This document shows positions 15,601 through 40,338 of a DNA stretch of 64,000 bases, in pieces. The stretch is from positions 806,001-870,000 of the forward strand of contig NW_025767119.1 of NCBI RefSeq assembly GCF_003918875.1. Direction: 5' to 3'. The notes beneath the pieces are model-generated. The model searched no databases and was not told the origin of the DNA. It was given only the letters and a program-made list of their open reading frames with translations. Position 1 is the first letter of the stretch; each line of letters opens with the position of its first letter. The translations under genes were made by a program, and so were the position numbers. Source of the stretch: Haliotis rubra. Taxonomy: Eukaryota.

Positions 15601-18600
15601 ATGTTCTCACCAAGCTGTCTGTATGTGTCATGTAGTCTTTACACGGTCCTGATCTAACCCTGCCCTTCACCAAGTTGCCTATGTATTTTCTATGCCACAC
15701 GGTCCCATTTGATCTAGTTCTGCCCTACACCAAGGCTCCCAAACTTCCCTTTGATGTTGCAGCCTACACCCAGGTCTAAATTTCAATGTAGTCCCAAACC
15801 CAAACTTCACGTTCATAGACCCAGCCCTACACCCACGTGTGTAGAGACGCATGTAGTTCTTGGAAACCCTTTCCTGTTGATGTATCCAGATTTACCACCA
15901 GGTCTATATGTCCTATGTATTCTCACACCTTCCCTTTGATCGACCCAGCCCTACATCCAGGTCTACAATTTCAAACGTACACACAGGTCTATAGTCCCAT
16001 GTAGTCGTACAACTTCCTTTGGTCGACCTAGCTCGACATCCAAGTCTATGTGTCCCATGAAGTCCTACACCTTCCCCTCAATCAACCCATCCCTACACTC
16101 AGGTCTTTATGTCACATCCAGTCCTACACCATCCCCTTGGTTGACCCAGCGCTTCACCCAGGTGTATGTGTCCTATGTAATCTTACACCTTCCCCTTGAT
16201 CGACCCAGCCGTAAACTAAGGTTGATTTGTTCTATGTAGTGCTACACCTTCCCCTTATTCGACCCTGCGTTACACCAAGGTCTATATGTTCTCTGTAGTC
16301 CTACACCTTCCCCTTGTTCGACCCTGCCATACCCGCAGGTCTGAATGTCCCATGTAGTCCAACACCTCTTCCTACCCGCCCTTCACCCAGGTCTGTGTGT
16401 GCCATGTAGTCTTACACGGTCCCCTTGATCGACCCAGCCTACACCCAGGTCTAAATTTCCAATGTAGTCCCAAACCTTCCTCTAAGTTGATCAACCGAGC
16501 CCTACACCCAGGTCTATATGTCCCATGTAGACCTACACCTCTTCCTTGATCTACGCAGATTTACACCCAGGTCTATCTATATGTCCTATGTATTCTCACA
16601 CCTTCCCATTTGATCTTACCCACCCTACACCCAGGTTTATATGTCCCATGTAGTCCTACACCTTTCCCTTGGTCGACCCATCCCTACACCCGGGTATATA
16701 TGTTTTATGTAGTGCTACATCTTCCCCTTGTTCGACCCTGCCCTTGATCGACCCTGCCCTTGATCGATCCAGCCCTATTCTCAGGTTTATCTGACCTATG
16801 TAGTCCTATACCTACCCCTTGATCGACCCAGCCCTACACCCAGGTGTATATAATTCATGTAGTGCTACATCTTCCCCTTGTTCGACCCAGCTCTTCACCC
16901 AGGTCTATGTGTCCTATATACTCCTACATCTTCCCCTTGATCGACCCAGCCCTACACACAGGTTTATATCTTCAATGTACTGCTACACCTTCCACTTGTT
17001 CGACCCATTACTACACCCAGGTCTACATGTCCCAAGTAGTCCTACACTTCCCGTTCATAGACCCAGCCCTACACCCACGTGTGTAAGACGCATGTAGTTC
17101 GAAACCCTTTCCCTGATCTATCCAGATTTACACCCAGGTCTATATGTCCTATGTATTCTCACACCTTCCCTTTGATCGACCCAGCCCTACATCCAGGTCT
17201 ACCCAAACGTACACACAGGTCTATAGTCCCATGTAGTCGTACAACTTCTCTTTGGTCGACCTAGCTCGACATCCAAGTCTATGTGTCCCATGAAGTCCTA
17301 CACCTTCCCCTCAATCAACCCATCCCTACACTCAGGTCTTTATGTCACATCCAGTCCTACACCATCCCCTTGGTTGACCCAGCGCTTCACCCAGGTGTAT
17401 GTGTCCTATGTAATCTTACACCTTCCCCTTGATCGACCCAGCCGTAAACTGAGGTTGATTTGTCCTATGTAGTGCTACACCTTCCCCTTATTCGACCCTG
17501 CGTTACACCAAGGTCTATATGTTCTCTGTAGTCCTACACCTTCCCCTTGTTCGACCCTGCCATACCCGCAGGTCTGAATGTCCCATGTAGTCCAACACCT
17601 CTTCCTTGATCTACGTAGATTAACACCCAGGTCTATCTATATGTCCTATGTATTTTCACACCTTCCCATTTGATCTAACCCGCCCTTCACCCAGGTCTGT
17701 ATGTGCCATGTAGTCTTACACGGTCCCCTTGATCGACCCAGCCTACACCCAGGTCTAAATTTCCAATGTAGTCCCAAACCTTCCCGTTGATCAACCGAGC
17801 CCTACACCCAGGTCTATATGTCCCATGTAGTCCTACACCTCTTCCTTGATCTACGCAGATTTACACCCAGGTCTATCTATATGTCCTATGTATTCTCACA
17901 CCTTCCCATTTGATCTTACCCACCCTACACCCAGGTCTATATGTCCCATGTAGTCCTACACCTTTCTCTTGGTCGACCCATCCCTACACCCGGGTATATA
18001 TGTTTTATGTAGTGCTACATCTACCCCTTGTTCGACCCTGCGCTTCAACCAGGTCTATATGTCCTATGTAGTCCTACACCTACCCCTTGATCTACCCAGC
18101 CCTATACCCAGGTCTATATGTCGCATGTAGTCACAAACCCTGCCCTTGTTCGACCCTGCCCTTGATCGACCCAGCCCTATTCTCAGGTTTATCTGACCTA
18201 TGTAGTCCTATACCTACCCCTTGATCGACCCAGCCCTACACCCAGGTGTATATAATTCATGTAGTGCTACACCTTCCACTTGTTCGACCCATTACTACAC
18301 CCAGGTCTACATGTCCCAAGTAGTCCTACACTTCCCGTTCATAGACCCAGCCCTACACCCACGTGTGTAAGACGCATGTAGTTCGAAACCCTTTCCCTGA
18401 TCTATCCAGATTTACACCCAGGTCTATATGTCCTATGTATTCTCACACCTTCCCTTTGATCGACCCAGCCCTACATCCAGGTCTACCCAAACGTACACAC
18501 AGGTCTATAGTCCCATGTAGTCGTACAACTTCCCTTTGGTCGACCTAGCTCGACATCCAAGTCTATGTGTCCCATGAAGTCCTACACCTTCCCCCTCAAT

Positions 18601-21524
18601 CAACCCATCCCTACACTCAGGTCTTTATGTCACATCCAGTCCTACACCATCCCCTTGGTTGACCCAGCGCTTCACCCAGGTGTATGTGTCCTATGTAATC
18701 TTACACCTTCCCCTTGATCGACCCAGCCGTAAACTAAGGTTGATTTGTCCTATGTAGTGCTACACCTTCCCCTTATTCGACCCTGCGTTACACCAAGGTC
18801 TATATGTTCTCTGTAGTCCTACACCTTCCCCTTGTTCGACCCTGCCATACCCGCAGGTCTGAATGTCCCATGTAGTCCAACACCTCTTCCTTGATCTACG
18901 CAGATTAACACCCAGGTCTATCTATATGTCCTATGTATTTTCACACCTTCCCATTTGATCTAACCCGCCCTTCACCCAGGTCTGTATGTGCCATGTAGTC
19001 TTACACGGTCCCCTTGATCGACCCAGCCTACACCCAGGTCTAAATTTCCAATGTAGTCCCAAACCTTCCCGTTGATCAACCGAGCCCTACACCAGGTCTA
19101 TATGTCCCATGTAGTCCTACACCTCTTCCTTGATCTACGCAGATTTACACCCAGGTCTATCTATATGTCCTATGTATTCTCACACCTTCCCATTTGATCT
19201 TACCCACCCTACACCCAGGTCTATATGTCCCATGTAGTCCTACACCTTTCTCTTGGTCGACCCATCCCTACACCCGGGTATATATGTTTTATGTAGTGCT
19301 ACATCTACCCCTTGTTCGACCCTGCGCTTCAACCAGGTCTATATGTCCTATGTAGTCCTACACCTACCCCTTGATCTACCCAGCCCTATACCCAGGTCTA
19401 TATGTCGCATGTAGTCACAAACCCTGCCCTTGTTCGACCCTGCCCTTGATCGACCCAGCCCTATTCTCAGGTTTATCTGACCTATGTAGTCCTATACCTA
19501 CCCCTTGATCGACCCAGCCCTACACCCAGGTGTATATAATTCATGTAGTGCTACACCTTCCACTTGTTCGACCCATTACTACACCCAGGTCTACATGTCC
19601 CAAGTAGTCCTACACTTCCCGTTCATAGACCCAGCCCTACACCCACGTGTGTAAGACGCATGTAGTTCGAAACCCTTTCCCTGATCTATCCAGATTTACA
19701 CCCAGGTCTATATGTCCTATGTATTCTCACACCTTCCCTTTGATCGACCCAGCCCTACATCCAGGTCTACCCAAACGTACACACAGGTCTATAGTCCCAT
19801 GTAGTCGTACAACTTCCCTTTGGTCGACCTAGCTCGACATCCAAGTCTATGAGTCCCATGAAGTCCTACACCTTCCCCTCAATCAACCCATCCCTACACT
19901 CAGGTCTTTATGTCACATCCAGTCCTACACCATCCCCTTGGTCGACCCAGCGCTTCACCCAGGTGTATGTGTCCTATGTAATCTTACACCTTCCCCTTGA
20001 TCGACCCAGCCGTAAACTAAGGTTGATTTGTCCTATGTAGTGCTACACCTTCCCCTTATTCGACCCTGCGTTACACCAAGGTCTATATGTTCTCTGTAGT
20101 CCTACACCTTCCCCTTGATCTACCAAGCCCTACACCCAGGTCTAAATGTCAAATGTAGTCCTACATTTTCCCCTTGATCGACCCAGTGCTTCACACAGGT
20201 CTATGTGTCCTATGTAGTTCTACACCTTCCCCTTTATCGACCCAGCCCTACAATCCAGGTCAACATAGAAGTACACCAAGGTCTATTTGTCCCATGTAGT
20301 CCTACACCTTCCCCTTGCTCGACCCAACCCTACAGCCAGGTCTCAATGTCCAATGTAGTCCTACACCTTCCCCATGATCGACCAAGCCCTACACCTAGAT
20401 CTGTATGTCCCATGTAGTCCTTCACCTTCCCCTTTATCGATCCAGCCCTACACCCAGGTCTATATGTTCCATGTAGTCCCACACCTTCCCCTTAATCTAC
20501 CCACTCCTACACCCAGGTCTATATGTCAATGTAGTGCTACACCTTCAAGTCTATATGTGCTATGTAATTCTACACATTCCACTTAATCGACCCTGCCCTA
20601 CCCTCAGGTCTATATGACATATGTATTCTCATACCTTCCCATTTGATCTATCCAGCCCTACACCCAGGTCTATATGTCGCATGTAGTCACACACCCTGCC
20701 CTTGATCGACCTAGCCCTATACCCAGGTTTATCTGACCTATGTAGTCCTACACCTACCCCTTGATCTACCCTGCCCTACACCCAGGTCTAAATGTCAAAT
20801 GTAGTCCTACAACTTCCACTTGATCGACCAAGCCCTACACCCAGGTGTATATAATTCATGTAGTGCTACATGTCCCATGTAGTCATACAGCTTTTCCTTG
20901 ATCAACGCAGATTTACACCCAGGTTTATCTATATGTCCTATGTATTTTCACACCTTCCCATTTGATCTAACCCACCCTACACCCAGGTCTATATGTCCCA
21001 TGTAGTCCTACACCTTCCCCTTAGTCGACCCATCCCTACACCCGGGTATATATGTTTTATGTAGTGCTACATCTTCCCCTTGTTCGACCCTGCGCTTCAA
21101 CCAGGTCTATGTGTCCTATGTAGTCATACACCTTCCCCTTGATCGACCCAGCCCTATACCCAGGTTTATATCTTCCATGTAGTGCTACACCTTCCACTTG
21201 TTCGACCCAGCCCTACACCCAGGCCTATCAAGCCCTACACCCAGATCTATATTTCCCATGTAGTCCTACACCTTCCCCTTGATCGACCCAGCCCTACACC
21301 CATGTTTATATGTCCCTGCTTGTTCTACACCTCCTCCTTGTTCTACCCAGCTGCAAACCCACGTCTATATGTCCTATGTATTCTCACACCAACCCCATGA
21401 TAGACCTAACCCTACACCCAGGTCTACCAGGCCCTACACCTAGGTCTATATGTCCCATGTAGTCCTCCCCATTCCGCTTGATCGACCCAGATTTACACCC
21501 AGGTGTATATGTCCCATGTAGTCA
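3638..21524. repeat. 59-bp tandem satellite, main array (~18 kb)
   Basis: Consensus CCCAGCCCTACACCCAGGTCTATATGTCCCATGTAGTCCTACACCTTCCCCTTGATCGA, repeated head-to-tail. Strongly degenerate at ~4800-8450 and noisy up to ~16000. Confidence 0.95.
15960..20130. repeat. 1284-bp higher-order repeat (~22 monomers) of the 59-bp satellite, best-resolved copies
   Basis: The diagnostic variant CACGTGTGTAAGACGCATGTAGTTCGAAACCC lies at 17076, 18360 and 19644 (exact 1284 spacing). Identical junk ORFs start at 17079, 18363 and 19647. Confidence 0.9.
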
Positions 21525-24500
21525 AGTCAAGTCAAGTATTTTTTATTCCGTATGCAGACCACAGTCCCATATACAACATACATACATTTGTTTACAAATA
21601 TGGATACACTTTAAAGGGTGTACATATCAATAATCACGTGTTATTTGTTCAAATGCATTTCTTGTCAGTATGAATATAATATTTAATATAAACATATATA
21701 CACACTTTGATAAACATGTATATTGGAAAAATGTGTGGTTTAGAGACAATTTATTAGAGTTTTATTGCTCTGATTTTATAATCATGAAAGATATATTTAT
21801 ATACATTTCTTAAAAGTGTTTCTTTATTTGTTGATAACAGGGACTTAAATTTATAGTAGTTTGGTTATTTCTGATATACATATGGTGAGTATTTTAATCT
21901 AAAGGAGTTATATTCAGTACATATAAAAATAAAATGGTCATCATCTTCTACACCCAGCTTACAAAATGGATAATTACGTTCTGCAACCTCAACATTTAAC
22001 CATCGTCCCTCATTATACTTTAACCTTAATAACCCACATCTAAATTTGATCAAAATATTTCGAAACTTTTTGTCCAAGATACATGATAAATATTTGTCTG
22101 GAGTTAACAGACTTTTAAACTCTCGGTAAATACGGTATCGTGAACTGTTATTCAATGTACAATTCCATGATTGAAAAAACATATTTATTGCAACAGTCTT
22201 GAATCTATTTACAAACGAAGCTGCATCACCAACTGACTTAGACATCCAGACGTAACCAAATCCATGTCAAAAAAGTATTTCCCTAATAAACTAGCCACAT
22301 AAAGAAACTGTGCATTGTCAAAATATTATCCCAGTTGATAACAGTACGATAACAATGTCAAAGGTACATATAAACTTTAATGGAGGGATCATGAGACCAT
22401 AACAAGTCGGGAGAATTTCAGTTGAAAAGTCTATCACAATGACGTCACGAGTCCACAAGCGGGACAGGGGTCAAACGACCAATAATGGGTATGAGAACAA
22501 GAAATCCATAGCAACCCTTGACGTATGAGGGCGGGCATTGTCCTGTTGGAATGTTAATCCAGGGCCATGACGTTGCAGAAAAGGAATTGCCACAGGTCGA
22601 AGAATCTGATCCCTGTAGCCCACACCAGTTAAGTTGCCCTGAACAATCACCAAAGCGATTCCTCTCCAAGACACAGGCCTGTGCATAACGTTCTCCCATG
22701 CGTCTATAGGCACGTTGACGTCCATCACTATGGGAAATGTTAAACCTGGACCCATCTGTAAACACAACATTTCTCCACTAAAACAAGGGTCTGCGGACAT
22801 GATTTCGGCACCACATTCGGCGAGCTTGTCGATGACGTTGTGTCAGGATAGGCCGTATGTCGTGACGTCGTGGTCTGATCCCGTGATGACGTAAACGTTG
22901 TCGAACTGTGTTGGGGTGGATACAGCGAAGTCCTGGGATGGTTCGGGCAGTCATCACTGCAGTCTGAAACCCGTGGCGAAGATGGGTCACCCTTATCCAT
23001 CTGTCCTGTCTTGGCGTTGTTACACGTGGACGTCCAGAAAGTGGCCGATCGATGACGTCATTTGTGTTCTGGTAGCGTCTCACCAGTGCAGAAATGGTGT
23101 CCCGGTGGCAGTGAAAATGTGCAGCCACTTGTCGTTGAGACATTCCCCCACAGACCATCCCAGTGGCCTCATGACGTTGTGCAGACGTGACCCTTGGCAT
23201 GCTATGCGTTTCAATAGCCGTTTAATTTTTTGAACGATCGCAAGGTCAGGAGTTGAGCTTCCCAAAGTGTCAGTATTGTGTGCCATTCATTTGCTCTGTT
23301 TTTCTTTCCCGGAATGCACGTGCAAAAATGTATTGCACGTCTCAAGGGCGAACCCACTGACGTCACGGAACGTAGCACGTGCATGCATGTTGGATACATG
23401 TCACTAATCTCTGAGTTTAAATCCTTATGTGTCTACACAGGTTTGATAAATTTCGATTATAAATTTTTGTATGCACAGTATATATGAAGCATATGTCTTA
23501 TATCCACAGTTATCGTTATGCATTTGCATGTTTTACACTTTCAAAGGAGTTCTCTCTTGATGCATATGAATATCCTTTAACCAATATTCTAAAGTTTTAC
23601 ACAAAGGGTTTATAATGAGAGGATATCTTCCACACTCGCCATGTACAATAGCAGTAGGTGTTTGAGGGCTGACATTCAAGAAACATTTGCAAGCTGTTAG
23701 ATGAACCTTTTCTATTTCATACAATTTATGTATTCCCCAGATTTCTGCCCCATACAGTAATATCGGCTGTATCTGCGCATCAAATATCTTAAAATACACA
23801 CTGGGGTCTACTATTCCGATTCCATTTAAATTAGTTATTACTTCCATTAAAGCCCGCTTACCCCTCAGTGCTAAATCATTGATGCAATTTCTCATCTTAA
23901 ATGTTGATAAAATCATTACTCCAAAATATTTATAAGTATTTAATGTTGTTATTGGTAAGGCATTTAGAAACCACTTTTCATTTCTTGCTAAGCGCCCTCC
24001 CCTTCTAAAAACAATAATATTTGTCTTCAGTGTAATTATGTGGAATATTAAGTTCATTCTGTAAGCCTGGAATTGTATCAGACATAAGAACAACATCATC
24101 TGCAAACATAAGTAACATGATTTCTAGTAAGTCTGGAAATAACTGCAATCCATATTTACCATATCTAGATATGTCGTCTGATAATTCACAAATGCAAAAG
24201 GAAAACAATAAAGGACTAAGAACACAACCTTGCTTTAAACCAATTGGACAGTCAAAATACTCAGTATATCCGTTATCACTTCTAACACAAGCTGTTACCG
24301 AGCTGTAAATACTCATGATAGCTGTTAGCATTTTCCCATGTAAACGACATTTGAATAAGCGCGTATATAACTTAGAACGGTCAATTGAATCAAAGGCTTT
24401 TCTAAAATCAATAAAAGCAACATATAACTTTTTCCTTTTCTTAATTAGACATTTTTCTATAACACCATGCAAAGTAAAAATATGATGAATCGTAGAGTAC

Positions 24501-24552
24501 CCTTGTCTAAAGCCTGCTTGTGTTTCGGGAACTTTACTCCATATATTTGCCC
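21522..24552 (-). mobile_element. 5'-truncated LINE (RTE-X-like) inserted in the satellite and interrupted by a Tc1
   Basis: RT motifs FIDFRKAFDSI, GLKQGCVLSPLLF, MFADD, YKYFGV; C-terminal KFRCG..PFCKLGVEDDDHFIFIC. The 3' end reads AATAAA then (ACTTG)n on the minus strand at 21522-21546. Confidence 0.9.
22289..23479 (-). mobile_element. Tc1/mariner transposon (family 1), internally deleted, nested in the LINE
   Basis: HTH region MPRVTSAQRHEA..RPLSGRPRVTT, then FTDGSRF and FQQDNARPH; the segment with the third catalytic residue is deleted. Left TIR (A)ACTAGCCACATAAAGAAACTGTGCAT follows TA; right TIR is truncated. Near-identical to 46977-48473. Confidence 0.9.
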
Positions 24553-25281
24553 AGTCCTAGACCTTCAGCTTCATCGACCCAGCCCTACACCCAGGTCTAC
24601 ATGTCCCATCTAGTCCTACATCTTCCCCTTGATCGTCCCAGCCATACACCATGGTCTATATGTCCCATGTAGTCCTACACCACCCCCTTGATCGACCTAG
24701 CCTTACACCCAGGCCTATATGTCCCATGTATTCCTACACCTTCCCCTTGATCGACACAGCCCTACACCCAGGTCTATATGTCCCATTTAGTGCTACACCT
24801 TCCCCTTGTTCGACCCAGCCCTACACCCACTCTATATGTTCAATGTAGTCCTACACCTTCACCTTCATCCACCCAGCCCTACACCCAGGTCTATATGTCC
24901 CATGTATTGCTACACCTTCCCCTTGTTCGACCCAGCGCTACACCCAGGTCTATATGTTCAATGTAGTCCTACACCTTCGCCTTCATCCACCCAGCCCTAC
25001 ACCCTGTATATATGTCCCATGAAGTCCTGCACCTTCACCTTGATCCACCCAGTGCTACACCCAGGACTATATGTCCTATGTATTCTCACACCTCACCATT
25101 TGATTTACCCAGCCCTACACCCAGGTGTATATGTCTCATGTAGTCCTACCTTCCCATTGATCGGCCCAGCCCTACACCCAGGTCTGTATGTCCCATGCAG
25201 TCCTACACCTTCCCGTTGATCGGCGCAGCTCTACACCCAGGTCTATATGTCCCATGTAGTCCCACACATTCCCACTGGTCC
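24553..25281. repeat. 59-bp satellite block 2
   Basis: About 12 monomers with the same consensus and orientation, resuming in register after the LINE. Confidence 0.95.
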
Positions 25282-26600
25282 GAGATAGGTATAGTGATTA
25301 CCAGTAAATAATATTTTCCCATTCAAAAAACATTTTTCTTTAGAGGAGACAGTTCCACCTCTTCTAAAGATAACTATATTTGTTTTTTTCAAAATTAACA
25401 AATAATTTCCATTCATATGTATAGCGTTCCAAAGTATTCGGTTGGTCTTGTAGACCGAAGATAGTATCTGACACTAAAATTACATCATCGGCAAAAATGA
25501 GAATAAAAAATTCAATCATACCTGGGAACATTTGCACACCGTTATAAAGAAGGAAAAGAATATAGGGCTTAAAATACACCCTTGTCGAACTCCCATGGGA
25601 CAGTCGAAAAAATCAGTGACATCATCACCACAACACACATGATTTAATATTCAAGTACATAGATTTTAAAAAAGAATACATTTTCCCTTGTAAACCAGAC
25701 TTTCGTAAGCAGTGTCATAATTTTACAATTATCCACAGAGTCAAAAGCTTTCTTAAAGACATAAAGTTTGTGTTTATTACGCGATAGACACTTTTGCATT
25801 ATTGCATATAGTGTAAAGATATGGTCAGTAGTTGAATAATCTTTTCCAAAAGCCGCCTAGCACTCAGGAATTAAGTTTCTTAGATTTGACCAGTTTGAGA
25901 TTCTATTGTTTAAAACAGTTGTAAATATTTTCCCAATAACACACATTAAAGATATGCCTCTATAATTATCTGGATTGTCTTGAGCCCCGTTTTTTATGTA
26001 TAGGGACGATAATTGAACGGGACCAGCTTTCTGGAAACGAACCACTTTCAAATATAGTATTAAAACACTTATGGAAGAAGGGCATTAACTCGACTTGAGA
26101 ACATTTAATCATTTCGATCATAATATTATCGGGACCAGCTGTTTTTCCGCTCTTTAAGTTATGTATAGCATTCTTTATCTTATCTACTGAAATTTGTGTT
26201 TCCTAAATCATTTGATCAACAGTGTCATGGTCATTCGAAGAAATAATGTCATCATCGAAGGAACAGCCATCACTTGGAAAAACAAAATCATTAGAAAAAA
26301 ACTGTCTTAAAATGTGTCATCCATTCACATTTTGAAATATTACTTTTAGGATTTGATCTCTTTCTAAATGAACGAATTTGTTTCCAGAACCAAGCAGGAT
26401 TCTGGATAGAATCATTCAATCTGTTCAATCGTTGATTACGCAGGCTAGATTTGAATTTTCTAAATGAAGCTTTGTATTTGTTTCTCATTTTACAAAAATA
26501 ATTTCTGTTTCTCTCCGAGCGTCTACACCGAAAACTTCTAAGTGCTTTGCGCGCGTCTCGTCGTGCAGTTTTACGCTCGTCACATAAGGGTGCTTTATAG
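25282..26600 (-). mobile_element. Second LINE (RTE-X-like), RT part; split by the LTR element
   Basis: NYRGISLMCVIGKIFTTVLNNRI, KAFDS, GVRQGC and IFADD remnants, with stops and frameshifts. Confidence 0.85.
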
Positions 26601-27292
26601 TGTCGTAACTGGGATTTGGGTGTTAGTAAACCCTACCCCAGTTACCTATTAATTATGATCGTTCCACATTGTCAGGCGTGATGTATGCTCAAGTTACACG
26701 CTCGCTTGGTCCATGGGGATGTTAAGTCCAGGAGTGAGAGGTCAGACGACAGTAACTCCTCAATGAACACATTTCATTCATGTGCTGGCACTCTGGCATA
26801 CAATGAATAACTCAACACCAGGTTTTATACTCACATAGATTTACTCGATCCCTCTCTTCATTTGGTCTGGACAGGATGGGGCAAGCTCTTCACCAGATAT
26901 GGATATCGATCGCGATGCGAACGTTCTGCTGACTTTGTAACCCGCACCACTTTCTAGTGCTGACGGTATCTTTTTAAGGTGTTCGAGCCTGCTCCACCCT
27001 TGTCACATGACCCTATACAATCCCTCTGATTTGTTAAAAATTACATCATTCCATGGTCTCATGTCTTGCCTCGTGATCGGAAAATTACTGAAACCTCTCA
27101 TCTATGATTCATTGTTCATTAATACCTAAAATGACTCTCTGTTCTGTCAATAAGATTTATCCTGTTGTTTGATCCCTTACTTTATTACTAAGCCGTAATA
27201 GCATTGCTTTTCTGATGCAATCACCGTAATCCTCACTAACGAATTTGTGATACGTTTCTTGTATCACAGATGCCTATTTTAACCTTATAACA
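26601..27292 (-). repeat. 3' LTR (692 bp)
   Basis: TGTCGTAAC...TTATAACA. Differs from the other LTR by roughly a dozen substitutions and a 10-bp indel (counted by eye). Confidence 0.95.
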
Positions 27293-29194
27293 TCCTCCGC
27301 ATGTGGACAAGAGCTGCCCACAGCTCTGAATAAGTAAACATGAGTACATGGAGGCGATGTGTATAAAGACAACCAAATCTACACGCGAAGCAATACAGGA
27401 CCACAGAACTCGACTTGGATATGAGGAGAATTTTGAGAGAAATCTGGACAAAACGCGAAACTGGCAAACATGTCCAAGGTACACTAACTTACGTTAATGG
27501 GAAGAAAATGGCTCCTATGTTACTTCGTAATACCACAAAGCATGAACACAACAAAACACAATACAATACAATACAATCCTATTCCGTTAAAGTTCATAAA
27601 GGTAATAAAGACGATTAAATGTCACTTCGTATGACCATATCTGGTCTGATCATTCACTAAATTCACTTGTCATCGGTCCCCAAACGAATTCACTGGCACT
27701 GTCTTGGGCAGGAAAAGTTTCAGCATGAGCTCTCCGGGATTTTGTACCGAACTCCACAACGAAATGTCAGATGGAACACACAGCGAAGAGTTAGTGATGT
27801 AGCACACAGCCTGGCAAGATCTCATATGATGATCTTGGGATGGAGCCTCGTGGGAAGTTGAAAAATGTTCGCACCCAAGTAGACTGGTAGACGTCGTTTA
27901 TGTTGCGAACAACCGACCGTGTCGAACGATGGTGTCAGAAGAAGGTGTACAAGGCGATGATAGAAACCCTCTGTCTTATGGCGTGTGGCGTGTGGATCGA
28001 CTGTGCCTGGCGTATAGTGGTTGTCACCACGTGTGGAGTCAGATGATTGATGGTGGAGGGGAACCGACGATAGTGGAGGAAGTGCTTGACTTCCGTCCTA
28101 ACAGAACGTGAGCCGGAGATGGAGTTGCAACACTTGAAAAACAGTGTTAAGCCACAACCAACATATTTGTAACCGGAAGTGAATGGAAAGAGTATAGTGA
28201 AATATGGATATATATATCAACATGGAATACAACGATCTTTTCTGGACAGAAGGCCATGGAGGTAAAAGATCAAACTACAATACGCTTATTAAGACAAACC
28301 ACGATACTGACGTAGCCTACTAATACGAATTGAATTCCAGTAATCCAGTTCCTACTGGTCATATTCATAATATGGAAAAGACATAAAGAGATACAAGATC
28401 GCAGTCATAGAAAGTATGGACGTAATCTATAATCGTCGATATGACTATGAACAATTAAGGTTCAACATTCAAGAAATGCTTTGTGGTGTAAAAGACGACA
28501 ACGAGCAACATAAATAAATATGTGAGGGATTGAGGGAATACATTGAAACACTGATGAAACTTGACTCTATCAAGTAATATTAAGGAGAAGCAACTGGAGA
28601 ATAATGTATAGTATGTAACTACCGGCTACCCATAATATGTGAGATACACAGTCCGAATACAATTAGTATCTCTATGGCAATGTTTATATGTTACAATATT
28701 GTTGTAAGAATGAGTATTACTATATGACTGAATATGCCTCTGATGACTAGGTAGTTAGAATAGAGACAAGAACCAGAATGTATTTCATATGAAAACAGAA
28801 CTTAATATGACTTTAAAACTTGGGGTATTTATCGGATACCATTACCTATGAAATTCTAAACCATTGTATAATCTCAAGTGTTCAATGTACCGTACTGACA
28901 AGTGTTAGTTGCTTGTTGCACTTGATCACAGTATGAAAAATAACGTATAAAAATATTAACTAGGACAAATATAATGTCGCATTTGTCTACATCATACCAG
29001 ATGGCAAAGACTCCGAGGCTAAGGTAGCTTTAATATGATGGACAGGATGCTGTCTGCCATATGGATTATGTCAAAGGTAACGAGAAAGCTGCCCCACACT
29101 GTTAGAGGCCTATCAATTATATTGTCTAGTGGGAAGAAAAGCTTTTAAACCACTGATATAAATCTTTACAAAAATATGTAGACTGTGATGGGTG

Positions 29195-30965
29195 GGAATT
29201 TGCAAAGAAGAAAAATCAAAATGTAAGTATTAAGAATGGAATTCCGGTTGAATATGAAAATCAGTGAGAGGATTTCCGGCTGACAATGTCAAGTCTCGGG
29301 AAATTAGAATAGTGAGACCATCATCTCAATTATGAAACATTATAAGCTCTTTCATACACTGGGAAGTAAGATGCAAATCAGCGTGAAATTTCTTGTCCTT
29401 TTTTGGATGGTCACGTTATTATCAAGTCATAATTGTGTAATTTTTAAAAGCATAATTTTCAAAGGTAAGTTATATTAGTTTTGGAAAGCTTAAAAAAAAT
29501 CCAATATGAGTAAAAAGTTAATTGGTTATAATTTTGAAGTTGTGTTTTCAGACAATTATAAATGCTAATGTCCATATCGAATTCATCAAGTTTCAACGCA
29601 AAATGGCAAGGAATTTTAAATATACAAATCTGACAAGCTGGACGCTTCTCAATACGACAATTGCAAGTTAATATAATAATTTTATGCAATTGAAAATACT
29701 AAGGCCTGGTTCGATTTCAAGAGCCATCGATCGCAGTCCATTCAATCTAAATTTCATATCACACAAGGATTTTATTTCTTGTGTGTTTTGAGTAAACAAA
29801 GCAAGTGCGCATGTAAGAGACGTTTTACGTTTCGGACTGTGGAAAATTGGACAGTGTTTTTCATGTTCACAATAGCACGTTTGAAACTCCTTTGAAGAGA
29901 ATTCAATATACTGGTCTTTCGCTTCCGAAATGGCTAAGAAATCCGGCAAATTCATAACCTGAGTGACATGCGTACTTGATTGATTAATAGGTAAGCCGAA
30001 TGAGCTAATTCGATATACATGTTCATCGATGAGAGTGGAATGAGTTTGAATAGGAACAATATGCGAAATTAAAATTGACTCTCCAGTCCGAGAACAATGA
30101 ACAGCGTTAACTATACATGTAATTATAACTTGGAATTAATGAGCAACGTGAAACAACGGATATTGCACATTAAGACGTTTCTGAATCATGTTAAAGCATT
30201 CTTTACTTCCTTAACTGGGAACAAAGATGGACTCAAATGGTGATGACTTAACTGCTTAATTACCAAATACATTTACATTTCTTGTCGAATAGTTGTTAAG
30301 AATGTAGGGCGATCTAACAAAATTGTCATAGAAATGAACATACTTTCTTCACATCTTGTGTGTGTCCAGCAAATTCCTTAATGTGTCTATAGGAGCTGAT
30401 GAAATACAAGCATTTGTTTTAGACATGTACATGTCTGTCGACATCTGACAAACTTTAAAAAAAACACGAAAAATATTAGTTACATACTACTATAATTGTC
30501 TCATAAACTGCACCAGTCGTTCTGAATATTCGACTCTAGCAGTGCCAAAAGGTGAACGACCAATTGATCCAATAATTGAAAGAATTTCTCGTTTTGTAGG
30601 AGAATCCGTATATAGAACATGAATGTACAGAATTAATATTCCAGTGTCATTAGCTACCACTGTTCAGTAGGCGGGGAACTTTTCTTCCGCCTGTTTTATG
30701 CAACCATCTATTAACATCGACTGAATAACCATTGTAATGAGGTAATGAGGACGTACCAAACGTTTTGGTAATGTGTCCTATCGCGCATTCTGGATAAATC
30801 TGTCATTTTTGTATTGGAATACATGCATTCATTTGTTTTGAAAGATGTCAAAATTGAATAATTTCGTATACACAAAAAATATATTTTATTCTGAATGCAA
30901 ACAATCGCCATACTGATCGAAGGAGACTCCCGAATGCTAAAATATAAAGAATGGGATTATGAACA
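29195..30965 (-). pseudogene. env-like class I fusion glycoprotein (baculovirus F / errantivirus type), decayed
   Basis: Hydrophobic N-terminus near 30960. Cleavage site and fusion-peptide-like SPTKR/EILSIIGSIGRSPFGTA at ~30538-30606. Cys-rich LPDFLAISEAKDQYIEFSSKEFQTC..C..TCALALF..IKSLC (29668-29955) and CQICIFKIPC (29459-29689). TM-like EILSLIFIF..TYILIFLLC at ~29200-29278. Confidence 0.72.
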
Positions 30966-30999
30966 TAAATATAAACTTGAAAATAAGTAATATATATCT

Positions 31000-32650
31000 C
31001 ATCAACATTTCGTACGAAAGGTTTCCATGCATTCTGAAACCGAGCAATGGTGAAAATTCATTCATCTCGAAACGTTTCCTGTAAATAGAAATTGATTGGA
31101 TCTGAAATATATGTTACCAATTGTCACAAGTAGATAATGGTAATCTCACACAAGTAACCGTGCGAATAAGCAGCATACATCAATAGTAGTAAATTCAGAT
31201 CAACCTCTTTCATCAGAAGATTTCTCATCACGGAACATATTTGTATCGGTACGATATAACCATTGAACACTGAATTCTCTTGACTGCCTTTCGAGTCATG
31301 TACTTGTAGTTCATTGCACATCATAGTATCTCATCGAACATCATCGTGTTTGTAAGTATATTGTATCATCACGTGACGCACTATCGTCAGATCTCTTTGG
31401 ATCGTAGTTCATTTCTTTGTCTCGTATATACACGCATAGCGAAACGCTTTGTAATGGTCCGCGAAATATGTACAACGTCCCTTTTGGACAGCGCGACCTG
31501 TAACCTTCCCGTAGAAGTAATAGGAATATATGCAACCTGACCTAAACATTGTGGTCAGTAACTCGGGAATGAATTCATCAAGTAGTAGTATGCAACGTGA
31601 CCCAAACCTTCGCAGCGTTTGGTCACTAACCCGTGTATATGAATGTATTTTTCAATATCAACCAACACATGACTGTATGCAGTCGAAGTATTCTGAATAT
31701 ACACAACTGGACATTTGACAATAAACAATACACATATCAACATCTATGCACGATTCTACATCCTTGTAACCATGTGAAGATTGAATCATGTAACATTGTA
31801 AAGAATGATCTATAGCATGTACCGATATGAGCTGTGCTCCATGCATATAGTATCAACTAGTTCCTGAAATAAAACACATGCAAAAATCAATATTAGAGGG
31901 GCGCTCTCCAACTCGATATTGCAGTGCGTAAACTGAAAAGGAAACTAAGAATAACAATTTGTCTGAAACAATATAATTCTAACGCTATAATTTCTTATTA
32001 AACGACTTCAATATCATGTAATCATAGATCTCCTTCAGGGAATTTGTATTCATGTTCATCTGTAACCTCATATACAGTTCAGGTCTCCAAATGAATCCTG
32101 TAGAATTTCTTTCCACTGAATATTCTACGCGCTCTAATGCATTTTGCTATACAAAACATTCTTGTAAATCCAAGGTAACATGTTATGCCTGTTCGTGGTT
32201 AATCTTTGAGCATTGGGGCTCATCAAATCCGTATCCTTATCATATTTCAGTAGTTTATGAATGTAATTGGACCGACCGACAACTGGAAATGGGTTAGTTG
32301 GCCTATGTTTGTGGCTGACAACCATTTTATGCCGTTTAGCGTGGCCAGGAACTTTCAGTCCTGTACGCTTGTCATAACGTCGTCGTTTGCACGTACGATG
32401 TGTCAATTGCTTGGAGACGTCATATTGCCGTTAAGCTTCGGAGTAATCTCCTGTGGGGACAGAGCTTACTCAAAGTGAGCTATCATCATACAAATCTGAT
32501 GATATATCTGTTGCAATTGGAATCGATATCTTGTCGTAGTTATCCGACTGGGGGAGACCATTGTCTGAATTTGCTGCGCACGGAAAACATGACAGAATAT
32601 CTACTGTATGCAGATGTTTTCCTGGTCGATATTGAACTGTGAAACCTTGG
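31000..32650 (-). pseudogene. Vestigial pol remainder (RNase H C-terminal tail, heavily decayed integrase)
   Basis: FTVQYRPGKHLHTVDILS resembles the end of gypsy RNase H. LSFLFSLRTA at ~31920-31950 and LYIFRGPL at ~31450-31480 resemble the integrase-core end and the GPY/F motif. Confidence 0.5.
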
Positions 32651-32799
32651 CAATGTTCCTTATTTGATAGGGGAGCAATTGTGACATTTTGCCGCGAGCG
32701 AGCAGGAATGTGTTCTGACTTCGTGGGGATTGATTGTTTACCAGCAACAGGTGGTAATAAAGTACCACTCCCCCTCATTGGAACAACTGTTGAACCATT

Positions 32800-33130
32800 T
32801 TGAATAGCCAAAGTATAAGATTGAAAATTCATCACAGCATTTTGACGTATCAAGAAATCTTAGCCTAAAATCACGGGAGACTCAAAATTTGCAACAACTA
32901 GAAAACATTATTCTGTTTGAAAATCACCAATAGTGATGGGAAGTACAACTTGTCCTAATACTGGCATTATATTTTGATTTGTCCCTTGAATAGATGGCAC
33001 ATCTGACTTTTGAATAGGGATTTCTTTCCATAAGCCTGAATCATTGAAAACTTCTAGGCTTAAAACACTAGAACCAGCGCCTGAATCTACAACTGATGAA
33101 ACTTTTCTCTCAAAACAACATGAATTCTTA
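32800..33130 (-). pseudogene. Retropepsin (aspartic protease) of the LTR element
   Basis: VSSVVDSGAGSSVL at ~33060-33103 and VILG*DFL at ~32850-32880. Confidence 0.8.
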
Positions 33131-33279
33131 GCCTTTTGTCACTTTTAGATGTAGATTTAGGCTGGTTGTAACAAGGAGAATTACAAATTTGTGACTTCAA
33201 ATAAGTATGGTCAAAAGATTGTTCAGCACAGTGGGAAAATTTCCTGCGTGGTCTTGACTGTAATTGCTATCTGCCAGTT

Positions 33280-34510
33280 GGGATACTTGACTGATACCTA
33301 GCCCTGCATACTCTTTGTAAATGTCCAATCTTTTGACAGAAATGGCACTGAACATTCCGTGCGGGACACCTATCAGAATGAGAAAAATCATACTCACCTC
33401 CACAGCGATAACACTGGCGTGCCCTTGACATGGTCCTTCCTGGGGTGTAGTCTGGCCTAGTAGACTGGGGTGGACGTCGCTGCTGGTTCTGTTGGTCCGG
33501 ATACGACTGTTGCTGAAACTGAGGTTGTGGCGGCTGCCACGGACGAGCTGTTTGCCTAGAAGTGCGTCAGGGGAATTGAGAACGTTGATTCTGGCGATAC
33601 TGAAAAGTACTGACCGGTAATGTTGGTTGAGTTAGTTTCCTCGCGAGCGAAGCAATTTGCTCTTTCTGAGTATCGATTGCCAGCGTCATAGTCGTACTTT
33701 CTGCAGACTGTGGAATAACTGACCTCGCCAATCGTGCACATGAAACTGCCTCCTTAAGCACCTGTGGCTGTTTCATTAAAACATGTCTCCTAGTATTGTC
33801 ATCTAATCCCCGAACAAAAGCGTCCATTAAATGTGTGTCAGATTTTCCTAACAAACTAGCCGTTTCCGTCAAGTCCGCCAATTAGGTATCTATAGCTTCC
33901 TTAGGGGACTCACAAAAGTTTCCAACGGTCAGTAGGATGGACATACTTGTCCTTGAACAATGTCTCAATCTCATCAAAACGAACAATTTCTTCCTCTGCC
34001 TCTATTAAATCTTTGTACCATAGATACGCTGCGTCCTTTAAAACAAGTGGGAAAACTTCAATTTCTGCGAATTAATTCACCTTTTCAAGTTACTAAAATA
34101 AAGGAAACGGTCAAGCCACTCGGCTCGGCAGCATGAGACGTGTCCCTACCTGTGAAATGTTCTGGCATTAAAGTGGAATCGCCCATATTGAAGTAAGGGG
34201 CAGAATAGGAACTATTGGTAGATGACAAATCTAAAGAGGAAAATGAGAATTCTAAATCTTCCTGAGAAAGAGATAGAGAGAGGTCATAGGGAGCAGATGG
34301 AGGGTGAGCCGTTGACGTGGGTTGTTGTATGATGCCAAGTCGGGTTGGATTAGTAAAAATGTTAGAAGTGATGGGACGAGATTGGACCGGACTGTCATAG
34401 GACGTGGATGAATCTGAATCATTTCCACGAGGCATTACAAAAATTCCAAATATCCGGAGGGAAAACCGCAGATAACATATCCCAGCCGCGAAAAGGGAAC
34501 CTACCGTCAA
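33280..34510 (-). pseudogene. gag of the LTR element, disrupted
   Basis: LMPEHFTG, FVRGLDDNTRRHVLMKQPQVLKEAVSCAR, a Q/P-rich linker, and zinc knuckles CYRCG..H..RC and CHFCQKIGHLQRVC at ~33300-33420. Confidence 0.8.
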
Positions 34511-34594
34511 ACGTCAATGAAGGGAACAAAGGGTAGGAACGACCATAAGGAAAACAACGAAAGGATCATCGTCTTAAACATTTTGTTCAAGAAG

Positions 34595-34612
34595 AACCCG
34601 CAATCTCCACCA
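34595..34612 (-). promoter_or_regulatory. Primer-binding site, tRNA-Ala-like
   Basis: The minus strand reads TGGTGGAGATTGCGGGTT immediately 3' of the 5' LTR. TGGTGGAG is complementary to the ...CTCCACCA end of tRNA-Ala. Confidence 0.7.
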
Positions 34613-35314
34613 TGTCGTAACTGGGATTTGGGTGTTAGTAAACCCTACCCCAGTTACCTATTAATTATGGTCGTTCCACATTGTCAGGCGTGATGTATGC
34701 TCAAGTTACACGCTCGCTTGGTCCATGGGGATGTTAAGTCCAGGAGTGAGAGGTCAGACGACTGTAACTCCTCAATGAACACATTTCATTCATGTGCTGG
34801 CACTCTGGCATACAATGAATAACTCAACACCAGGTTTTATACTCATATAGATTTACTCGATCCCTCTCTTCATTGCAAGGTGCCTGGTCTGGACAGGATG
34901 GGGCAATCTCTTCACCAGATATGGATATCGATCGCGATGCGAACGTTCTGCTGACTTTGTTACCCGCACCACTTTCTAGTGCTGACGGTATCTTTTTAAG
35001 GTGTTCGAGCCTGCTCCACCCTTGTCACATGACCCTATACAATCCCTCTGATTTGTTAAAAATTACATCATTCCATGGTCTCATGTCTTGCCTCGTGATC
35101 GGAAATTACTAAAACCTCTCATCTATGATTCATTGTTCATTAATACCTAAAAGAACTTTCCTGTTCTGTCAATAAGATTTATCCTGTTGTTTGATCCCTT
35201 ACTTTATTACTAAGCCGTAATAGCATTGCTTTTCTGATGCAATCACCGTAATCCTCACTAACGAATTTGTGATACGTTTCTTGTATCACAGATGCCTTTT
35301 TTAACCTTATAACA
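34613..35314 (-). repeat. 5' LTR (702 bp)
   Basis: Direct repeat of 26601-27292, adjacent to the PBS. Confidence 0.95.
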
Positions 35315-35710
35315 ATAGCTTGCTTAAACGGCTTAGTCTTTTTCTTCATACAATCTGCTGAATCTAATATAACATGGACAAACTCATCTAAAGCTCCGTT
35401 TAGATCAGGCTCAAGTTTTGATAAGAGACAGTCATCATAAAATAAAATCTTACTTTCGCAAGAGGCGTCGTTCCAAACAATCTTTTCTTTATAATCATCA
35501 ATATGGATTTTATCACTTGAGTTGTTTATATTTGGAAATTGACAAGTCATTTCTAACGGTCTCGGTCTACCGGTCTCCAATATTCAACAGGTTAACAAAT
35601 TGGAAGAAGTCTGGTGAACCAATAAAATAGTCATTGACACTTGATCCCTGTTGGCCATGAAATGTATATTCGCCTTGCAGGTCTCCATACACTCTACCGT
35701 TCGCTATGAA
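35315..35710 (-). mobile_element. Upstream half of the second LINE (end of endonuclease domain)
   Basis: NGRVYGDLQGEYTFHGQQGSSVNDYFIGS; colinear with 25282-26600 once the LTR element is removed. Confidence 0.8.
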
Positions 35711-36515
35711 CACATTCCCCTTCATGGACCCAGCCCTACATCCAGGTCTATATGTCCTATATATTCCCACACCTTCCCATTTGATCTACCCAGCACTACA
35801 ACCACGTATAAATGTCCCATGTAGACCCACACCTTCCCCTTGATCGACCCATCGCTACACCCATCTCTGTATGTCCAATGTATTACTACACCTTCCTCTT
35901 GATCGACCCAGGCCTACACCCAGGTCTATATGTCCCATATTGTCCTACACCTTCCCCTTGATCGACCCAGATTTACACCCAGGCCTATATGACCCATATA
36001 GTCCCACACCTTCCCCTTGATCGACGCAGCCCTACACCAAGGTGTATATGTCCCATGAAGTCCTGCACCTTCCCCTTGATCGACCTACCCTTACACCAAG
36101 GGGTATACGTCCCATGTAGTCCTACACCTTCCCATTGATCGACCCAGCCCTACAACCAGGTCTATATGTCCCATGTAGTCCTACACCTTCCCCTTGATCG
36201 ACCCAGCCCTACACCCAGGTCTGTATGTCCAATGTAGTCCTGCACCTTCCCCTTGAACGACCCAGCCCTACACCCAGGTCTATATGTCACATGTAGTCCT
36301 ACAACTTCCCCTTAATCGACGCAGCCCTACACCAAGGTGTATATGTCCCATGAAGTCCTGCACCTTCCCCTTGATCGACCCACCCCTACACCTAGGTGTA
36401 TATGTCCCATGCAGTCCTACCCCTTCCCCTTGGTCGACCCACCCCTACACCCAGGTATATATGTCCCATGTAGTCCTACACCTTCCCCTTGATCCACACA
36501 GTCCCTACACCCAGG
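35711..36515. repeat. 59-bp satellite block 3 (two to three further degenerate monomers at 37186-37328)
   Basis: Same consensus; the 59-bp period is readable at 36121/36180. Confidence 0.95.
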
Positions 36516-37042
36516 CCAGTCTATCCCAAGTATTATAGCTAAAATACATGGAATTATCACGAAACGGCCCTCCCATTATCAGACATTTGCGGTCCGCTGC
36601 AAATGATATTGGACCACTCAACCTTAACGACGGGCCACTATCAGTTCTGTTGTCAAGTGACGTCATAGTTCGACATTAATTGGCTTTCGACTGGCAGATA
36701 TTCTGGGTCAAACAAGTCAAAGCAACCCAAATTCCCGCTTTAAATAGCGGTAATATTGGCTTTCTTGTTGGTGCTAACCTTAACAATTGCACTATTAAGA
36801 CTGTTGATGGACCAAAACCGAACACTGCCATAGTTTGACATGTTGCAGGCTATGGTCTTGTCAAAGGACAAGGTCGAATATCGTCACTTTCTGTTGTGAC
36901 GTCACTTTCGAATTGTTCGATGACGCAATTGCATTCGGGCAGTCAATCCTGTCAGAAGTTGATTTGGGTAAACTTACGGTCAAATTCCTTCATTGTTTCC
37001 TTTTCTTTTCAACACAATTCCGTGTATTTAGTTAATATTAAC

Positions 37043-37175
37043 GGTAATGTTATTTTTGAGGGCATTATCATTTGCAGAAGCCCTCGGTCTTTTTCAACTG
37101 CCCTCCTTCGTCCGGGCAGTTAATGGAAAACCTCAGGCTTCTGCAAATGATAATGCCCTCAAAAATAGCATTACC
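37043..37175. repeat. 133-bp near-perfect palindrome
   Basis: 40-bp arms at 37043-37082 and 37136-37175 with one mismatch, plus an inner stem AACTGCCC/GGGCAGTT. Confidence 0.9.
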
Positions 37176-37380
37176 CTTATAGTACTGATCCACACAGTCC
37201 CCATACCAAGGGTAACATGTCCCGTGTAGTACTACACATACCTCTTGATCGGCACAGTCCCTACAGCCAGGTCTACATGTCTCATATTGTTCCTCATATA
37301 CCTTGATCCACCTAGGACCAACACCCATATTATCACCTAACCAATGTTATTACAAATTAAAAAACACACACTCTCGTAAC

Positions 37381-38630
37381 ACCTTTAAGTCTACATAGCC
37401 ATTACAACCTTGTGTAAAACTCAAAAATAGATCAACATAAACCTTTAAATCTGCATAGCCATTACAACCTGGTGTAAAACTCCAACATAGACACACATAA
37501 ACCTTTAAATCTACATAGCCATTACAACCTGGTTTTACGGTTAAATAATTGCCGTGACAAAAGGTTTAAGAATCCCCTTTGAACCAGCAAAATGTAACAC
37601 AGACAAGTCTAAAATAGTCAAAAATATATTGAGCAAACAATGAGCAAACTACAATGAATCACAATACAGATTTCTAATACAATTCAATTGAGTCACAAAT
37701 CTAAAGTTATGGGCCGCATATATAAAATATTAACTCACCAGAGTCTTGGTAATCACAGTGAGATCAGATATTGTAAATGGAGCTTGTTTACAAATGAAAG
37801 CAGTCAGGCACGAAGTGTCAGGGTCAGACGATGATGTGACCAAGGCAAACAACTATGGGCAACTCCAGTAAAAGATCCATGTAATTCCGTATGTTAGTCC
37901 GTGTGTCAGTCTTTTGTGTCGCACCACACAACAGACAGCCTTTACATGTACTGACACAGATTCTCGAACTTTCCAGCAAAGCATGGCTGTATCATTAAAC
38001 ACTTAGATCTTTCTCGAAACATGTTGAACATACGACACGGCGATGTCAACACACAAACATCCGGTCAAGGGAGGTAACTCTGGAGCGCTATCATAAAGGA
38101 GTGGCGCTAAGATATTGTTGCCACTGAACATATACGACTCGAAATGTGACCCACAACCAACACTCAAAACTTTAAACATTGTGCCTCATAATTATTATCA
38201 CCTAACCAATGTTATTACAAATTAAGAAAAAACACTCTCGTAACACTGGTGTAAAACTCAAGTAAAGACCCACATAAACCTTTAAATCTACATAGCCATT
38301 ACAACCTGGTATAAAACGCAAACATAGACCCCGATAAACCTTTAAATCTACTTAGCCCTTACAACCTGGAGTAAAACTCCAACATAGTCCCACATAAACC
38401 TTTAAATCTACATTGCCATTACTACCTGGTGTAAAACTCCAAAATAGACCCACATAAACCTTTAAATCCACATAGACATTACAACCTGGTGTAAAATCCA
38501 ATATAGTCCCACATAAACCTTTAAACCTACATAGCCATTACAACCTGGTGTAAAACTCCAATATAGACCAACATAAACCTTTAAATCTACATAGCCATTA
38601 CAATCTGGTATAAAATTTAGACCCACATGT
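37381..38630. repeat. 60-bp A-rich minisatellite in two blocks (37381-37532, 38247-38630)
   Basis: Unit ACCTTTAAATCTACATAGCCATTACAACCTGGTGTAAAACTCCAACATAGACCCACATAA. Each block is preceded by the same ~55-bp leader (37329, 38192). Confidence 0.9.
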
Positions 38631-40338
38631 ACCTCTTGACAGCCCTTGTAAGACACCCGAACACAGCCATACCCAGTCAAGTTACAGACAATGATGCACT
38701 CACATTATTGATAAAAATCCATTCTTCGAGAATGAATACAGTCATAACATTGATTGCATGCGAGTAAAACCAATTCCTCGGGAATGCAGTTTATACGCTG
38801 CCAGTAGTGTGGTATTGTCGACAAGGTGGTTGTCAGGTATTACCTATTGACGCGACGTAAACAAAAACTGTCAAAACACATCGAGAGGGAATACAGTAAC
38901 TATACATGCAGGTTCACATCACACTCAGGTCATAATGAACTTTAACAAGACATGTAAAGCTCACATGTTATTTTGCGACCGATTTTGCTTAATGCCAATT
39001 TTGGTATATTGCGTGTCAGATTATATACGTAACCAAATTAATAACTTGATATTGTTACATTGAGATCCACAATACAAGTAGTGTGTGCATCACTTAATAG
39101 TAAATTAATTACCCCAATTTAACTAGTCAGGCTCAATTAGATTTTCCTGGACGATGATCATTTGAGATTGTCTCAAAATGCTGGTCAAGCAAATGACCTC
39201 CAAATCAATCGGCCTCACGAACATAACACCCTTGCGATACACTGGCGTGTCTCTCCGGATCCATCGTAAACGCTGAGCACACTCAAGATAGGCCCTATAT
39301 TCCGTCGCAAAGCATGGATACCTGCAGTTCGCAGTGGATGCCCCTTGGTCTGAGTGGACGCTCAACGTATGAGCATCAACTACTAGTAGAATTTGCAGCC
39401 ACAAATCAGTTGTAACCCGATTTGTACGTCATTTTGATGTGACGACACACGCAGCGCCTCGGACCTAGGGCGATCTGCAGCTGAAGCTCACAGGTCCACA
39501 GATTGTAATCTGTCTAACGACTACAATCCAGGGCTGCTGCATTTTCCAGCCTTAAGACTACCCATCACACTCTTCCGTTGCTAATTTGTTGAAAGACGGC
39601 AAACTTGCTTTTTTATTCAGCTGGCAGGACCCATGCAAGTGCAATCCCCAGACACGTGCAATCACAAAAGTAAATAGTAGCTCGCTGCACGTGATTGTTG
39701 TGTTTCACGCTCTTTGCACGATCTGTGACTACATTTTTCACGTCAGTCGCCAAGACCATACTCAATTTCCTGCATGTCATTGTCTCGTGTATGGCACAAG
39801 AACTCAAAAGAATCAACCCTTACAATTATTACAAACAATGTGGGTGTCAGATTTATGTTGAGTTATAAGAATGTCATGTCAGTGTTTACTGAGTGGTACC
39901 TTAAACCTTCTACTGTAGGCAGGTTATCCTGAGGCTTATCCTACCACGGGAATCCCACAGGAATCCCCTTGGTTTAATCAGAATTACGTCACTTTAGAAT
40001 GTCAATTGTCATTGTAGGTGGAATGAAATGAACACTTAAAAATGAGATGAATGACAGTTAAAATATTTTGCACACAGTTACCTGAACTTTTTCACAGACT
40101 GTACAGAGCAGCTTCATTGGTGCCACTTACGTGTGTTGTAATTAGTATAGTTGCGTCAGCCTTACCAGATTAAAATACAAAATGACCAGTTAATTGCTGG
40201 TTCATAACCATCTGCAACAGCAGACGCATCATCATAATGGTTTCATCAAGACTAAGGATGGATATGTATTTCTTTCTCACTGGACTTCTTACAACAATGC
40301 TTGAGGCGAAGCCTGAAGATGTTTTTCTACAAGTAGAA

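Follow-up and report, generated by a model that had tools for sequence, protein, structure and literature searches.

The window analysed here, a stretch of 64,000 nucleotides of the Haliotis rubra genome (contig NW_025767119.1, positions 806,001 to 870,000), contains an LTR element of 8,714 bp that holds the env remnant under study (26601-35314; all features of the element lie on the minus strand). The 5' LTR (34613..35314, 702 bp) and the 3' LTR (26601..27292, 692 bp) both have the form TG...CA and differ by a K2P distance of 0.0146 (about 1.5%). The 5' LTR adjoins a primer-binding site of the tRNA-Ala type, TGGTGGAGAT (34598..34612), the first 10 nt of which are complementary to the 3' ends of host tRNA-Ala genes, and a purine-rich tract (27293..27304) lies upstream of the 3' LTR. 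The element is flanked by the 4-bp target-site duplication CTAT (35315..35318 on the 5' side, 26597..26600 on the 3' side), and 4-bp duplications were also present in all five sibling elements checked. With these marks the element belongs to the Ty3/gypsy group (Metaviridae). It interrupts a LINE-like ORF, within which the 5' duplication lies; this broken ORF2 (23533-26632 and 35315-35583, minus strand) also has a satellite array inserted in it. Arrays of a 59-bp and a 60-bp repeat occupy 20000-21500, 24450-25280, 35720-36610 and 37321-38669, a C-rich skew (about 3000 to 22000) accompanies the 59-bp repeat, and a 53-bp inverted repeat is found at 37039-37179. Elsewhere in the genome, dozens of tRNA-Ala-type 3' ends occur in tandem with a spacing that alternates between 345 and 415 bp (G000:C2415:650923-670676, C2622:266-2908).

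In order, the LTRs enclose a broken gag, pol reduced to its protease part, what is left of the chromodomain, a spacer of 1.1 kb, and the env remnant. The gag remnant (33267..34513), with a Ty3 capsid and two Cys knuckles, has one frameshift and seven stops. Only residues 1 to 207 of pol are left in the protease region (32662..33266), as the reverse transcriptase (RT), RNase H, and integrase core have been deleted, and the C-terminal chromodomain remnant (32031..32150) corresponds to a domain that matches Chromo with an E value of 6.5e-11 in a sibling pol. The spacer (30943..32030) is noncoding; an early reading of 31200-32000 as integrase was dropped. The env remnant (29347..30936), consisting of the signal and an F-type ectodomain, carries stops and 23 indels. 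Env codons 560 to 710 (approximately), which encode the first transmembrane (TM) helix, a second signal, and the second TM helix, are deleted between 29347 and 29300, and a remnant of the cytosolic C-terminal domain follows (29136..29300, codons ~711-769). The remaining 3' region (27305..29135) lacks the fourth ORF of the siblings. Part of it (28463-28906) gives a 71% match to the C206/C554 subfamily and no match to C2393, which suggests that the window copy is a recombinant.

The initial annotation proposed a hidden F-type env gene here, and much of what it read from the letters holds: downstream of the pol remnants and inside the LTR pair we find the K*MHVFQ motif (30834-30814), the basic site with its fusion-peptide-like stretch, SPTKR/EILSIIGSIGRSPFGTA (30538..30603), and a Cys-rich stretch. 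The P4 arginine of the furin site is indeed missing, with Pro in its place (PTKR). Two other elements of that description did not stand. The supposed TM segment near 29228 comes from reading the cytosolic domain in the wrong frame, both TM helices being deleted, and the supposed hydrophobic leader (30999-30940) lies upstream of a conserved TTTTAG (30942-30937) and corresponds to the pyrimidine-rich end of a predicted intron, at the 3' end of the spacer. The env signal proper is located after 30936 and is broken in the window copy. An open sibling env aligns with the window by tblastn with an E value of 9e-112 over 30885-29347, far above chance. Among 19 distinct copies, the furin site could be read in 11: it is R-x-K/R-R in 8 of them, has Pro in 2 (the window copy and C1806), and is frameshifted in 1. 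One env piece has at least 153 matches in the genome (scores cover 150 of 268 candidates), several of them in long open frames.

The predicted acceptor TTTTAG (30937..30942, phase 1) has a counterpart in gag, where a donor, GGAG/GTGAGT, is predicted in the first zinc knuckle (33392..33401, exon end at 33398, phase 1). In the env family of the window element, a stop lies just upstream of the env frame, no Met precedes the hydrophobic signal, and a pyrimidine tract with TTTAG is found at that place. In a sibling gag, the donor AG/GTGAGT directly after the CxxCG of the first knuckle is the best of 114 GT sites and its phase fits that of the acceptor; the second-best donor, CAG/GTAGGG, lies upstream. 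Donor scores were based on approximate textbook frequencies. We compared env families of this genome that have diverged to about 25-35% env identity. The knuckle donor ranks first among about 60-110 GT sites in several of them, and the best acceptor is in phase 1 in eight. Of 14 representatives, 12 have a phase-1 donor located at the first knuckle or beside it; the offset is 13 or 16 in 10 of them and the score at least 3 in 9, and the two donor-less representatives form a group with a phase-2 acceptor directly before an ATG. In family F3 the acceptor could not be resolved, and in F5 and one F1 copy a Met lies near the acceptor. A score of at least 3 anywhere in the same region was reached by 2 of 15 env-less families versus 9 of 12, a control that is imperfect, as its 15 families lack a homologous first knuckle. 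When codons were shuffled synonymously with the peptide kept, P values ranged from 0.02 to 0.32 per family, with 3 of 12 singly below 0.05, and the combined P value was 2e-4, a figure that overstates independence since the 12 representatives are related in a tree of RTs from this genome; that tree, which holds own-genome RTs only and in which L071 is mislabeled and the label "envless" is wrong for L088, L092, L093, L095, and L101, was used solely for the kinship of env families. The knuckle scan did not pick up knuckles that lack G/N-H or have no protease motif nearby (L062, L108-L111, L118, L135, L144, and others), and L082 and L122, which have partial env matches, were excluded from both the env and the env-less counts. 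L108-L111 and L135, an env-less family that is nested within the env families, were rejected as env-less controls because the end of their pol is that of an env-bearing copy, and they were counted with the env families.

Stored proteins point in the same direction. Of 10 with a leader longer than 100 amino acids, 8 end the leader in CxxC just before the env signal. These eight are automatic NCBI models from H. rubra, H. rufescens, H. asinina, Argopecten irradians, and Lingula anatina, which belong to two phyla, and two of the Gag-env gene models contain Pfam gag domains (in precomputed or our own scans). In each abalone subfamily, the residue at the joint is the one that its DNA would give (G+AA=E, G+CA=A). 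Contigs from three runs guessed to be RNA, compared with both references, gave no predicted donor-acceptor joint among the joints listed, which is no evidence either way, and one such contig is unspliced across the donor and the acceptor, as genomic RNA or DNA would be.

A rival explanation is that we are dealing with an ordinary ancient errantivirus, in which env is made from a short upstream exon or from an internal Met, and that Gly codons and prediction software have produced the knuckle donor and the Gag-Env models as side effects. A short upstream exon is described for most Drosophila subclades in the parts of PMC12992720 available to us, and one abalone group does have an acceptor with its own ATG. 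A phase-1 site is the best donor in 9 of the 15 env-less families too, as the codons for CxxC-Gly alone favor a phase-1 GT, and for 42 of the 67 database env proteins with a readable motif, the first residue is a Met within the signal or close to it. Chance Gly codons and software would not readily explain that models of five species in two phyla have the identical joint, that the amino acid at the joint fits the DNA of each abalone subfamily, that the donor is first among about 60-110 GT sites in several families, or that it is missing in just those cases in which env carries an ATG of its own. We therefore regard this explanation as unlikely, and it is likely, judging from these predictions, that env in the intact relatives is made as a spliced capsid-envelope fusion. 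Other donors further upstream could still give a leader shorter than the one ending at the knuckle. A precedent for such a fusion is the Env-F of the Drosophila Idefix subclade (Senti et al., EMBO J 2025, PMC12992720), where, in the account given there, env exon 1 comprises 1010-1349 of gag (1010-2032), so that Gag is fused to Env ahead of an internal signal. The abalone sequences have the corresponding predicted features, namely, an in-frame donor in gag and an acceptor before the env signal. The two differ in clade and host and in the length of the gag part, which is about 113 codons in Idefix and would be about 330-350 in abalone, running through the capsid into the first zinc knuckle.

The window copy belongs to a lineage that has lost RT. 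The same pol deletion is present in C569, C2024, C206, and C554, and the window env diverges by 8 to 11% from four other RT-less copies versus 26% from the open sibling. At least three of those four share 13 of the 23 env indels, including 8 that shift the frame, and the LTR pairs of all six copies measured (the window copy and five siblings) are 0 to 2% apart. The insertions that share lesions have different target sites, which argues against segmental duplication as the source of the shared lesions. Together with the young LTR pair, this implies that env was already broken while the lineage was being copied. The proposal that the copy is dead is therefore correct for its env gene and not for the element, which was copied after env had decayed. 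In some RT-less copies gag is open (dN/dS about 0.3), in one, C554, env is nearly open, and the RT-less form is found on a 6,259-nt contig from a sequencing run guessed to be RNA. The window copy is thus a member of a nonautonomous LTR family without RT or integrase and with intact cis signals. Complete relatives would supply the enzymes in trans, so that the lineage could keep moving without a working env, and passengers lacking env and pol ride such a family. A further sibling is C2393, in which gag (421 codons) and pol (1395 codons; PR-RT-RH-IN-chromodomain, the Ty3/gypsy order) are open, env is in two frames that split near the anchor, and the fourth ORF is present. The host genome was also searched for an intact gag-pol-env copy, and none of the copies fetched, which are part of the family, has all three genes open. 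It is very improbable that the window copy was inserted long ago and decayed where it stands, or that its frameshifts are assembly errors. Seven of the 23 env indels, 5 of them frameshifting, are private to it, and its gag has seven stops whereas the gag of other RT-less copies is open; an LTR divergence of 1.5% stands against an env divergence of 26% from the open sibling, and the 13 shared indels occur in insertions at other target sites, which largely refutes this reading. L037, L038/L039, L028, and L042 are RT-less with one common pol deletion and, with gag open in some and env nearly open in one, amount to gag-env-only elements; L044 (G000:C2414:49100-56500) has kept gag and the fourth ORF and lost pol and nearly all of env. 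In the family of L108, L111, and L135 versus L050/L051, env is present or, in several copies, absent, and gag-pol is a single frame of 1744 codons.

The F-type identity proposed for the env is supported. In Pfam, no family was matched by three window frames read with X at the stops, nor by the window ORF at 29671-30135, and the 829-aa env ORF did not match Baculo_F as a single sequence. A 602-aa sibling frame did match Baculo_F (E = 6.8e-8, 32 bits, cutoff 24.1), as did 5 of 18 homologues above the cutoff. Word-index searches returned few relatives (2, 8, and 1 proteins), and the nearest named proteins to the sibling ORF are from Haliotis (92% and 80% identity), which makes the host an abalone. 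A PDB search from a single sequence gave noise only, and a profile of 130 homologues found the "fusion protein" 9w4d with an E value of 1.5e-19, the furin site and fusion peptide being in register; RxxR is present in 102 of the 121 homologue rows covered. The single-sequence structure model was unusable (pLDDT 37), and the model from the homologue alignment was confident (pLDDT 81), matching the F proteins of respiratory syncytial virus (RSV) and paramyxoviruses and, among predicted viral structures, glycoproteins of a myriapod virus and of chuviruses, a protein of abalone herpesvirus, and baculovirus F. As in class I fusogens, the ectodomain folds like F, and heptad helices come after the fusion peptide. 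That the env ORF is instead a captured host gene is scarcely credible, for although single sequences often miss Pfam, the top profile and fold matches are class I viral fusion proteins only and the furin site and fusion peptide are conserved.

Behind the ectodomain, the env tail is present in 102 of the 130 aligned homologues, with a second hydrophobic signal in 93 and a second TM helix in 102. In one pair of copies, dN/dS is 0.16 for the ectodomain, 0.20 for the TM region, and 0.13 for the cytosolic domain, which indicates purifying selection on env. A small-x-small motif occurs in 90 of the 102 rows (a count with no control), and an Atlas search with the cytosolic domain gave no usable match.

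Gypsy elements of molluscs that carry an F-type env have already been published. Chary and Hayashi (eLife 2026, PMC13524379) describe "ancient errantiviruses" of Mollusca with an F-type ENV, including a chromodomain-bearing clade of Cnidaria, Mollusca, and Annelida; at least 15 mollusc rows of its table are ENV_F, and H. rubra was screened with the result "No intact copies." Intact in that study means that a single copy has gag, pol, and env without interruption, and the window copy is broken throughout. The abalone element agrees with these elements, as far as the paper's main text describes them, in LTRs, gag-pol-env order, an F ectodomain with furin site and fusion peptide, and a pol chromodomain. 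It is an F-type errantivirus in the wide sense, having a third ORF after pol that is homologous to F, with furin site and fusion peptide in 8 of the 11 readable copies and PTKR in the window copy. Baculovirus F (PF12259; PDB 9w4c/9w4d) and paramyxovirus and pneumovirus F share with the abalone env the ectodomain fold, the Cys pattern, and R-x-K/R-R followed by a G-x5-G-x3-[KR]-x2-FG-like peptide. Those proteins have their own start codon and a single anchor, with no capsid leader or second membrane module in the aligned part, and insect Env-F has one TM helix and a tail (PMC12992720, in the portion available), whereas the env of the abalone family has two TM helices. The analysis in PMC13524379, in its main text, covers only the ectodomain between signal and TM. 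"Splic," "accessory," and "ring" do not occur in that main text, and, figure supplements and sequence repository aside, it does not describe a Gag-Env joint, a second membrane module, a fourth ORF, or nonautonomous copies. The literature searched, with most subscription journals outside its scope, held nothing on the joint, the tail, or the fourth ORF. What may be added to the known kind is thus the predicted capsid-envelope splice over two phyla, the second membrane module, and the accessory ORF.

We consider it probable that the window stretch is the decayed F-type env of a recently inserted, RT-less abalone Ty3/gypsy copy and that the env of the intact relatives is likely a spliced capsid-envelope fusion cut into three membrane-bound pieces. 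In this scheme the donor in the first Gag zinc knuckle would join about 330-350 Gag residues, with the whole capsid region and no complete RNA-binding knuckle, in frame to the internal env signal. Cleavage by signal peptidase would then set F free and keep the capsid piece anchored in the membrane, and furin would cleave F at RxK/RR, just before the fusion peptide. Behind the F anchor, another internal signal would begin a small membrane protein of type I, its Pro/Thr ectodomain about 30 amino acids long and its cytosolic beta-domain about 110. Through this capsid piece and the cytosolic domain, assembling capsids could be tied to the F-bearing membrane, and the particles could bud and enter other (germline) cells. 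The leader of the foamy virus Env, which is long, cytosolic, and encoded by env, binds Gag and so links envelope and capsid. The predicted abalone leader would be comparable in this linking role and would differ in being Gag itself. This scheme bears on how Ty3/gypsy capsids outside Drosophila come to be wrapped in an F-bearing membrane; PMC13524379 calls the transmission mechanism elusive. The conserved splice joint would allow the expression and form of env to be tested with one PCR in farmed animals.

It is conceivable, though rather doubtful, that the mollusc and brachiopod errantivirus envelope is a spliced polyprotein of capsid-signal, F, and a small membrane protein whose end resembles a negative-strand-virus matrix, so that env would bring a membrane-anchored capsid and its own matrix, and that the F-plus-tail unit shared with abalone herpesvirus and chuvirus-type glycoproteins reflects the capture of a complete cassette for fusion and budding and an exchange with a virus infecting the same host. 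The matrix in question is that of Mononegavirales (BDV M), a beta-sandwich that the cytosolic domain may resemble. In a Foldseek search of BFVD, the glycoprotein of Hubei myriapoda virus 8 matched with an E value of 7e-27 over 936 columns, and an uncharacterized 801-aa abalone herpesvirus protein, A0A145VUZ2, was second best (E = 6e-26 over 821 columns, 16% identity). With chuvirus glycoproteins, these top matches have a length like that of the full abalone env ORF, and judging from the predicted models the tail is likely shared with them. A matrix-like second membrane protein in the env frame would bear on the origin of retroelement class I fusogens and on the passage of genes to or from abalone herpesvirus. 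Viro3D (PMC12583693) reports class I fusogens in aquatic herpesviruses, and neither "malaco" nor "haliotid" occurs in the available text of that paper. Several homologues of 900 to 1,013 amino acids (P0124, P0157, P0158, P0073, P0125, P0126, P0149, P0163, and P0164) lie on contigs of 3 to 12 kb with their own start, and the two-TM tail is present in those fully read. They are possibly glycoproteins of free viruses; a viral-contig scan with P0124 gave no match. An early oyster herpesvirus genome paper is said to have noted glycoproteins resembling retrotransposon proteins.

The siblings carry a further ORF after env, of 300 to 410 codons, which is open in several copies, 36 to 71% identical, and has a dN/dS of 0.12 to 0.41. 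It is absent from the window copy, and none was seen beside env in 15 loci of other families. There are 49 genome matches (among them loci L146-L157 and L027:4337-5410). The pattern C-x2-C...PCC-x4-H-x2-C...C-x2-C is invariant in all seven aligned sequences, and the best matches to RING domains are weak (RNF31, E = 0.026; zf-RING_2, E = 0.41), so this may be an accessory ORF with a RING-like motif. Bdelloid rotifer LTR elements combine a paramyxovirus-like F env with acquired accessory ORFs (PMC5408684); in the text available, these encode esterases, exonucleases, and TM proteins, and "ring" does not occur, in contrast to the RING-like ORF of the abalone siblings. One RING-type frame was also seen at L049, on the opposite strand.
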